From sequence record OR192075.1: 64,000 nt of DNA, one strand, 5' to 3'. Shown piece after piece: positions 42,696 through 43,166 of the stretch. This DNA comes from Escherichia phage MIZ6. The notes under the pieces are model-generated. The model saw only the letters and a program-made list of their open reading frames with translations, made no database searches and was not told the origin of the DNA. Both the position numbers and the translations under genes were made by a program. Position 1 is the first letter of the stretch. The number at the start of each line of letters is the position of its first letter.

Positions 42696-43166
42696 TTACA
42701 GTTTGGTCGTCCACTCCAGGTCTAGATCTTCGACATATTCATGAGATCGGACAATCTCTAAATCGAACTCTAGGTCAGTGCCAAATTTACGCGCACCAAC
42801 ATCATAAGAAAGCGTGATATGCGGTACATATTCAGGATAATCCCACGTCGCACCTAAAGCAGTTCCGATATCGTGTCTGAATTGCATGTAGTCGCTTTCA
42901 AATGCCAACACAAGCGCATTAGTACCGGATTGAGTTTCAAACACTTTCAGATGGCATAGAGAGCCTAAAAACTTTTCACCCTCTTCTGGGATAAACGGAA
43001 CATAGACACGAGAATATAAGATAGTGCTATGCAGTTTATCACGAGGAACGGCATTAGGCAGATCGTAGAACTCCTGCAATTTTTCAATGCGGTCTAGTGT
43101 ATCCTCAGTGAATTTAACAGCCGCATATGTACCTTTAACGGATTCTCGAAACGGGGTCATAATCAA
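42696..43166 (-). CDS. 57B: 2H phosphoesterase, 57B/Acb1-like (putative anti-CBASS cyclic-oligonucleotide phosphodiesterase)
   Basis: 156 aa; two H-x-T/S-x motifs (HSTILY and HITLSY) diagnostic of the 2H phosphoesterase fold; directly upstream of 57A and gene 1 as T4 57B. Confidence 0.65.
   Translation of the reverse strand: MIMTPFRESVKGTYAAVKFTEDTLDRIEKLQEFYDLPNAVPRDKLHSTILYSRVYVPFIPEEGEKFLGSLCHLKVFETQSGTNALVLAFESDYMQFRHDIGTALGATWDYPEYVPHITLSYDVGARKFGTDLEFDLEIVRSHEYVEDLDLEWTTKL

Follow-up and report, generated by a model that had tools for sequence, protein, structure and literature searches.

The window analysed here, i.e. the whole 64,000-nucleotide stretch of Escherichia phage MIZ6 DNA (OR192075.1), derives from a Krischvirus (RB49-like coliphage). 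Its minus strand carries gene 57B (acb1) together with genes 57A, 1 and 3; these genes, the signals that surround acb1 and the functional positions of its product are listed in Table 1. The ORF list gives the span of the acb1 frame as 42696..43166, which includes an upstream in-frame TTG. As read from the sequence, the start is likely to be the ATG at 43160, two codons past the TTG at 43166, and the same start is annotated in three related genomes (RB49, MIZ2 and G2494). The stop codon of 57A is located 2 nt ahead of this ATG. On the plus strand, the ORF list contains nothing notable that overlaps acb1.

The terminator-like hairpin found after acb1 (9 bp, GC-rich) closes the 3-1-57A-57B run, and the annotation of phage G2494 places a terminator at the same site. 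A T4-type late promoter (TATAAATA) was not found upstream of acb1 (from 43160 to 45200), and the count of this sequence in the whole window was not above chance. Two matches to the sigma-70-like consensus are present on the minus strand (43529-43501 and 44139-44111), both of which are pattern matches only. Rfam and tRNA scans around acb1 revealed no RNA element.

Table 1. Genes, signals and functional positions at the acb1 locus (window coordinates; amino acid numbering of the acb1 product; fractions refer to 62 family members).
Feature	Position	Strand	Remarks
acb1 (gene 57B), coding sequence	42696..43160	minus	154 aa; ATG 43160-43158, TAA 42698-42696; ORF list
Shine-Dalgarno sequence GGAGG	43168..43172	minus	7 nt ahead of the acb1 ATG, within the last 57A codons; read from the sequence
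Intrinsic-terminator-like hairpin ACCCCGAAAAATTTTCGGGGT + T-run	42659..42689	minus	begins 7 nt past the acb1 stop
Gene 57A, tail-fibre chaperone	43163..43423	minus	Pfam GP57, E=2.9e-6; phrog_1002, E=3.2e-26; RB49/MIZ2 annotation
Gene 1, dNMP kinase	43456..44112	minus	Pfam DNMK, E=3.5e-68
Gene 3, tail completion / sheath stabiliser	44128..44718	minus	phrog_45; Pfam gp19-like; RB49 annotation
Y12, base-stacking aromatic	43125..43127	minus	T4 Y12; Y in 61/62
HSTILY, aa 44-49	43014-43031	minus	translation
First catalytic HxT, H44-S45-T46	43023..43031	minus	H and T invariant (62/62); aligns with H44/T46 of T4 and FBB1
F74, base-stacking aromatic	42939..42941	minus	T4 W74, FBB1 F; F 41/62, W 21/62
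Y108, base-stacking aromatic	42837..42839	minus	T4 F107, FBB1 Y; F 42, Y 15, H 4, W 1 of 62
HITLSY, aa 114-119	42804-42821	minus	translation
Second catalytic HxT, H114-I115-T116	42813..42821	minus	H and T invariant (62/62); T4 H113/T115
E144, equivalent of the adenine N6 contact	42729..42731	minus	T4 E141; E in 56/62
C-terminal lid, aa 147-154, DLEWTTKL	42699..42722	minus	LDLEW common to FBB1
W150, lid Trp	42711-42713	minus	T4 W147; W in 47/62

The order 3 > 1 > 57A > 57B is identical to that of T4, with the genes on the same relative strand. All four genes read from high to low coordinates, and 57B is therefore the last of the run. A reading of this DNA made from the sequence alone (below, the sequence-only reading) had placed 57B upstream of 57A and gene 1, as in T4. 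The neighbours and the T4 order stand, but the word upstream does not: 57B precedes 57A in plus-strand numbering only, and by transcription it lies downstream.

Beyond the acb1 terminator we found a gene for a protein of 125 aa, then a small ORF and then dmd, at the place where T4 has ipI, the gene of an anti-restriction internal protein. The 125-aa gene (42207-42584, minus strand), which directly follows the terminator, is preceded by a near-consensus sigma-70-like promoter (42651-42623, minus strand). Its product matches phrog_15253 (function label 'unknown') and, weakly, Pfam Gp30.7; the gene occurs in Krischvirus genomes only (58 records), and searches of the PDB and of PADLOC gave no match. 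Since it occupies the T4 ipI slot, between acb1 and dmd, it is a candidate counter-defence gene. The dmd homologue (41768-41971, minus strand; Pfam Dmd, E=7.6e-16) is located three genes downstream of acb1; in T4, Dmd is the antitoxin that acts against the RnlA and LsoA toxins. The pair acb1 and dmd thus gives this small neighbourhood, at the edge of an accessory stretch, an anti-defence flavour, and it is a reasonable place to seek new counter-defence genes.

Several other observations were made in the window. For about 280 nt of the minus strand (40582-40858) neither the MIZ2 nor the RB49 annotation shows a gene, and neither an Rfam family nor a tRNA was detected in them. They include a GC-rich segment of 166 nt (40685-40850), which folds well (-58.3 kcal/mol, z=-2.85) and has a terminator hairpin and U-run at its end; a TTGACA...CATAAT promoter follows. 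This segment is a possible small stable RNA; the corresponding arm of T4 carries tRNAs and rnaC/rnaD. A gene for an HNH/NUMOD3 homing endonuclease of 231 aa (46500-47195, minus strand) separates gene 4 (head closure; 46027-46500) from gene 53. It is annotated in MIZ2 but absent from the RB49 junction, and members of the genus therefore differ in this mobile element.

Where T4 has vs.3, vs.4 (Acb2) and vs.5, flanked by regB and vs.6, the window carries a tandem array of three small ORFs (64, 86 and about 111 aa; 33945-34774, minus strand). They are mutually 33-43% identical and have a C-x-H-L...W motif in common, and none of them has a Pfam match. T4 vs.4/Acb2, a second anti-CBASS gene, had no tblastn match in the window at E<=0.01. 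The three paralogous ORFs are adjoined by the gene of an RlaP-family nucleotidyltransferase (232 aa; 34796-35494, minus strand), which matches 'RNA repair pathway DNA polymerase beta family' with E=3.4e-14.

Comparison with other Krischvirus genomes revealed that the 3.5 kb around acb1 are 100% identical to the corresponding DNA of Escherichia phages MIZ2 and MIZ3, except for one single-base indel, which falls somewhere within 41500-42696 (3501 query versus 3500 record bases); the window thus stems from an isolate or assembly very close to these two, yet distinct from them. The same region is 98-99% identical in RB49, JSE, KFS-EC and about 55 further Krischvirus genomes; of the 58 matching records of this group, 57 cover at least 80% of the 3.5-kb query, all with at least 95% nucleotide identity. 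At the protein level there is no difference from RB49 gp57B (NP_891697.1; UniProt Q7Y455; 100% identity), and the two genes differ by 3 synonymous and 0 non-synonymous nucleotide changes. In the case of the RB49-like phage vB_EcoM-G2494, which Hobbs et al. included among the 57 phages of their lysate screen (PMC9117128, Supplementary Table 1), we found 8 synonymous differences and 1 non-synonymous difference, and the proteins are identical at 153/154 positions (D129N).

Shortened versions of the gene are annotated in two relatives: as two fragments of 64 and 82 aa in Enterobacteria phage Cognac (MZ504877), and at 143 aa in phage TB34. These reflect either sequencing error or natural loss, and the latter, if true, would fit dispensability of acb1 in the absence of CBASS.

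The acb1 product matches the Pfam family Acb1 (PF23474) with 174.4 bits, against a gathering cut-off of 27 (E=1.5e-51), and the alignment runs from end to end (residues 9-152 on profile positions 1-143 of 144). A phmmer search of all PDB sequences gave a single significant match, to the Acb1 of Erwinia phage FBB1 (7T26/7T27; E=1.8e-43), and tblastn detected matches in 1,475 phage records, 57 of which encode a protein at least 95% identical. These three results together place the ORF far from a chance frame. PF23474 is carried by every one of the 64 database homologues. The exact protein sequence is present on 316 contigs, and its UniRef name is 'Anti-CBASS protein Acb1' (n=16, Tax=Krischvirus, RepID Q7Y455_BPRB4); both the gene and its membership of the Acb1 family are thus on record already. 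Scans of the protein against NCBIfam and PADLOC gave no match, an uninformative outcome, since neither library yielded any model that fits it.

The residues by which Acb1 recognises and cleaves its ligands have been described in T4 numbering. Hobbs et al. 2022 (PMC9117128) assigned the catalytic HxT/HxT tetrad to H44, T46, H113 and T115 and the base-stacking aromatic positions to Y12, W74, F107 and W147, and described a flexible lid at the C-terminus (residues 145-152) that folds over the ligand. In the same study E141 was found to contact adenine N6, which is why Acb1 needs at least one adenosine in its substrate. We verified this residue numbering by alignment. Conservation was counted in 62 family members drawn from a collection of 5.8 billion proteins.

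The two HxT/S motifs named in the sequence-only reading, HSTILY and HITLSY, were both confirmed base by base in the acb1 ORF. In the alignment all nine functional positions are kept, namely Y12, H44, T46, F74, Y108, H114, T116, E144 and W150. The lid region (EDLDLEWTTKL) aligns with EELDLEWSDK of FBB1. The only unusual residue near the pocket in the 62-member comparison is W106, two residues from the stacking Y108; it is rare (4/62), and Y or F is usual at that position. The two-residue insertion relative to T4 and FBB1 (E131-F132) was considered as a determinant of specificity and rejected: 57 to 59 of the 62 members have residues there, and hence the deletion belongs to T4 and FBB1.

The fold was compared by means of a predicted, not a solved, structure of the protein. 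The AlphaFold2 model, built with 62 homologues, has a pLDDT of 91.5 and a pTM of 0.84, with pLDDT below 50 only at residues 1-5 and 151-154; low values at the last residues are as expected for a mobile lid. A Foldseek search of the PDB placed 7T26 and 7T27 on top (target-normalised TM 0.97 and 0.93; rmsd 0.9 and 2.0 A), and the modelled protein has a compact 2H phosphoesterase fold like that of FBB1 Acb1. The third-best neighbour was PDE-9, a phosphodiesterase of Burkholderia phage BCSR5 (9Q2Y/9Q2G; TM 0.62-0.72, E about 1e-7). LigT, CPDase, Usb1 and viral 2'-5'-oligoadenylate phosphodiesterases appeared further down (TM about 0.5 or less). The N-terminal lid of PDE-9-type enzymes has no match in the protein: its first strand comes after 9 residues only, the first five of them disordered in the model, and its lid is C-terminal and Acb1-like.

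Family membership, the predicted fold, the conserved functional residues, synteny and the UniRef name of the exact sequence all indicate that this Krischvirus (RB49-group) gene is orthologous to T4 57B/acb1 and encodes a metal-independent 2H phosphodiesterase of 154 aa. We put the probability of this at about 93%. The proposal of the sequence-only reading, an Acb1-type 2H phosphoesterase at the 57B position, agrees with all five lines of evidence. The alignment with T4 Acb1 by which that proposal could be checked extends over proteins of 48% identity, and the catalytic tetrad, the adenine-reading Glu and the lid Trp are kept in it.

The names found in the databases point elsewhere. The protein matches PHROG 755, which is labelled 'RNA ligase' (E=9.8e-55), and in GenBank and RefSeq records the gene appears as 'RNA ligase' or 'hypothetical protein', the former name having been copied in RefSeq and other records. 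These labels would fit a LigT or 2'-5' RNA ligase-type 2H enzyme that acts on RNA ends, in RNA repair or in the processing of 2',3'-cyclic phosphates, and the 2H fold is indeed common to LigT. The Pfam matches on which such an assignment could draw are, however, weak and below threshold: 19.4 bits against a cut-off of 27 for 2_5_RNA_ligase2 (PF13563), and 14.1 against 23.3 for LigT_PEase (PF02834), as compared with 174 for Acb1. The structures superimpose poorly as well, since the LigT chains rank 6th or lower in Foldseek, with TM 0.46-0.58, rmsd 4.5-7.7 A and 10-13% identity, against TM 0.97 and 0.9 A for Acb1. Moreover, 57B of T4, a member of the same family, has been shown to be the cGAMP-degrading activity of that phage, and the PHROG label is older than this work. 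On the sub-threshold Pfam scores and the poor superposition we rejected the RNA ligase assignment, which we regard as hardly credible. The deposited label is a misnomer inherited from PHROG 755, and the Acb1 assignment survived the search for a better match among RNA-ligase-type 2H enzymes.

A different question is whether an enzyme of the Acb1 family proper might have a substrate range meaningfully shifted from that of T4 Acb1, sparing 2'3'-c-di-AMP, for example, or accepting other signals. Of the Acb1 proteins of T4-like coliphages that we examined, the Krischvirus lineage is the most diverged: the MIZ6 protein is 48% identical to the enzyme of T4 and 53% to that of FBB1, as against 68% between the latter two. 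The rare W106 adjoins the pocket. In addition, Doherty et al. 2025 (bioRxiv 10.1101/2025.08.21.671373) reported that PDE-9, from the same structural group, cleaves 3'3'-cGAMP and largely spares 2'3'-c-di-AMP, and that this preference is set by the core of the enzyme and not by its lid. PDE-9 is nevertheless distant (16-18% identity), as its TM scores and its N-terminal lid also indicate, and all nine of the residues of catalysis and base recognition are kept in the MIZ6 protein. At positions 74 and 108 the protein has the same F and Y as FBB1 Acb1, of which there is a crystal structure with 3'3'-cGAMP; the LDLEW lid is identical to that of FBB1, on which the model superimposes at 0.9 A. The two additional residues at 131-132 are the common state of the family, and Hobbs et al. 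(PMC9117128) found cleavage of 3'3'-cGAMP and cAAA by each of the nine additional Acb1 homologues that they assayed. A shifted range therefore appears unlikely, and the suggestion that the sequence is diverged enough for the range to differ finds no support in a sequence that retains every recognition residue.

The divergence from T4, together with the rare W106 beside Y108, leads to a narrower version of this idea, which we consider a long shot: Krischvirus Acb1 might have a tuned preference, such as slower cleavage of 2'3'-c-di-AMP, that would defeat CBASS without tripping 'guard' systems of the Panoptes type. If true, the Acb1 family proper would include a naturally occurring variant in specificity.

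Returning to the assignment as an orthologue of T4 Acb1, we infer its catalysis, its list of substrates and its anti-CBASS effect in vivo from the T4 and FBB1 enzymes. T4 Acb1 and nine homologues cleave 3'3'-cGAMP, cAAA and related signals 3' of adenosine in a metal-independent reaction (PMC9117128), and T4 lacking acb1 has a plating defect of more than 300-fold on CBASS hosts and none otherwise. By analogy, the MIZ6 enzyme would bind, during infection, the cyclic di- and trinucleotides made by CBASS CD-NTases of the host (for example 3'3'-cGAMP, cUA, cAAA and cAAG), the captured signals containing at least one adenosine. Y12, F74, Y108 and W150 would sandwich the bases, with the C-terminal lid shutting over the ligand, and E144 would read adenine N6. 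H44/T46 and H114/T116 would then catalyse attack of the adenosine 2'-OH on the 3'-5' phosphodiester, giving a 2',3'-cyclic phosphate intermediate whose hydrolysis would yield a linear product with a 3'-phosphate. With the signal destroyed, the CBASS effectors would stay inactive and abortive infection would be averted. As with T4 Acb1, the enzyme may deplete 2'3'-c-di-AMP too, and so trigger Panoptes-type systems. The literature searched contained no paper pairing Acb1 with RB49, none pairing Krischvirus with CBASS, and no biochemical or genetic study in which exactly this protein was tested.

The amount of new biology in this assignment is small, as the discovery of Acb1, with its structural and genetic characterisation, dates from 2022, and the exact protein is already in UniProt/UniRef. 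Its practical relevance lies in the names: mislabelling as 'RNA ligase' or 'hypothetical protein' hides an anti-defence function that is relevant to the host range of coliphages considered as therapeutic candidates.

Among the characterised enzymes, E. coli LigT and the 2'-5' RNA ligase-type proteins have the 2H fold and two HxT/S motifs in common with the MIZ6 protein, but they exceed it in size, and nothing in the alignment corresponds to the C-terminal Trp lid of Acb1. PDE-9 of BCSR5 (Doherty et al. 2025) has the same 2H core and degrades 3'3'-cGAMP; it differs in the N-terminal position of its lid and in its poor activity on 2'3'-c-di-AMP, whereas the MIZ6 protein has a C-terminal lid of the Acb1 type.

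T4 Acb1 (gp57B; NP_049750.1) is much closer (47.7% identity, E=3e-47). It has W74 and F107 in place of F74 and Y108, the residues being aromatic in both proteins, and the 57A and 57B genes of T4 overlap by 4 nt, in contrast to the spacing of 2 nt found here. The closest of the characterised enzymes is the Acb1 of FBB1, known from its apo form (7T26) and its complex with 3'3'-cGAMP (7T27; PMC9117128), with 52.8% identity over 142 aligned residues. This enzyme comes from a different phage lineage and host, lacks the two residues in the variable loop (131-132) and has Y in place of W106. It is, however, of the same length class, is identical to the MIZ6 protein at all nine functional positions and ends in the same LDLEW lid.
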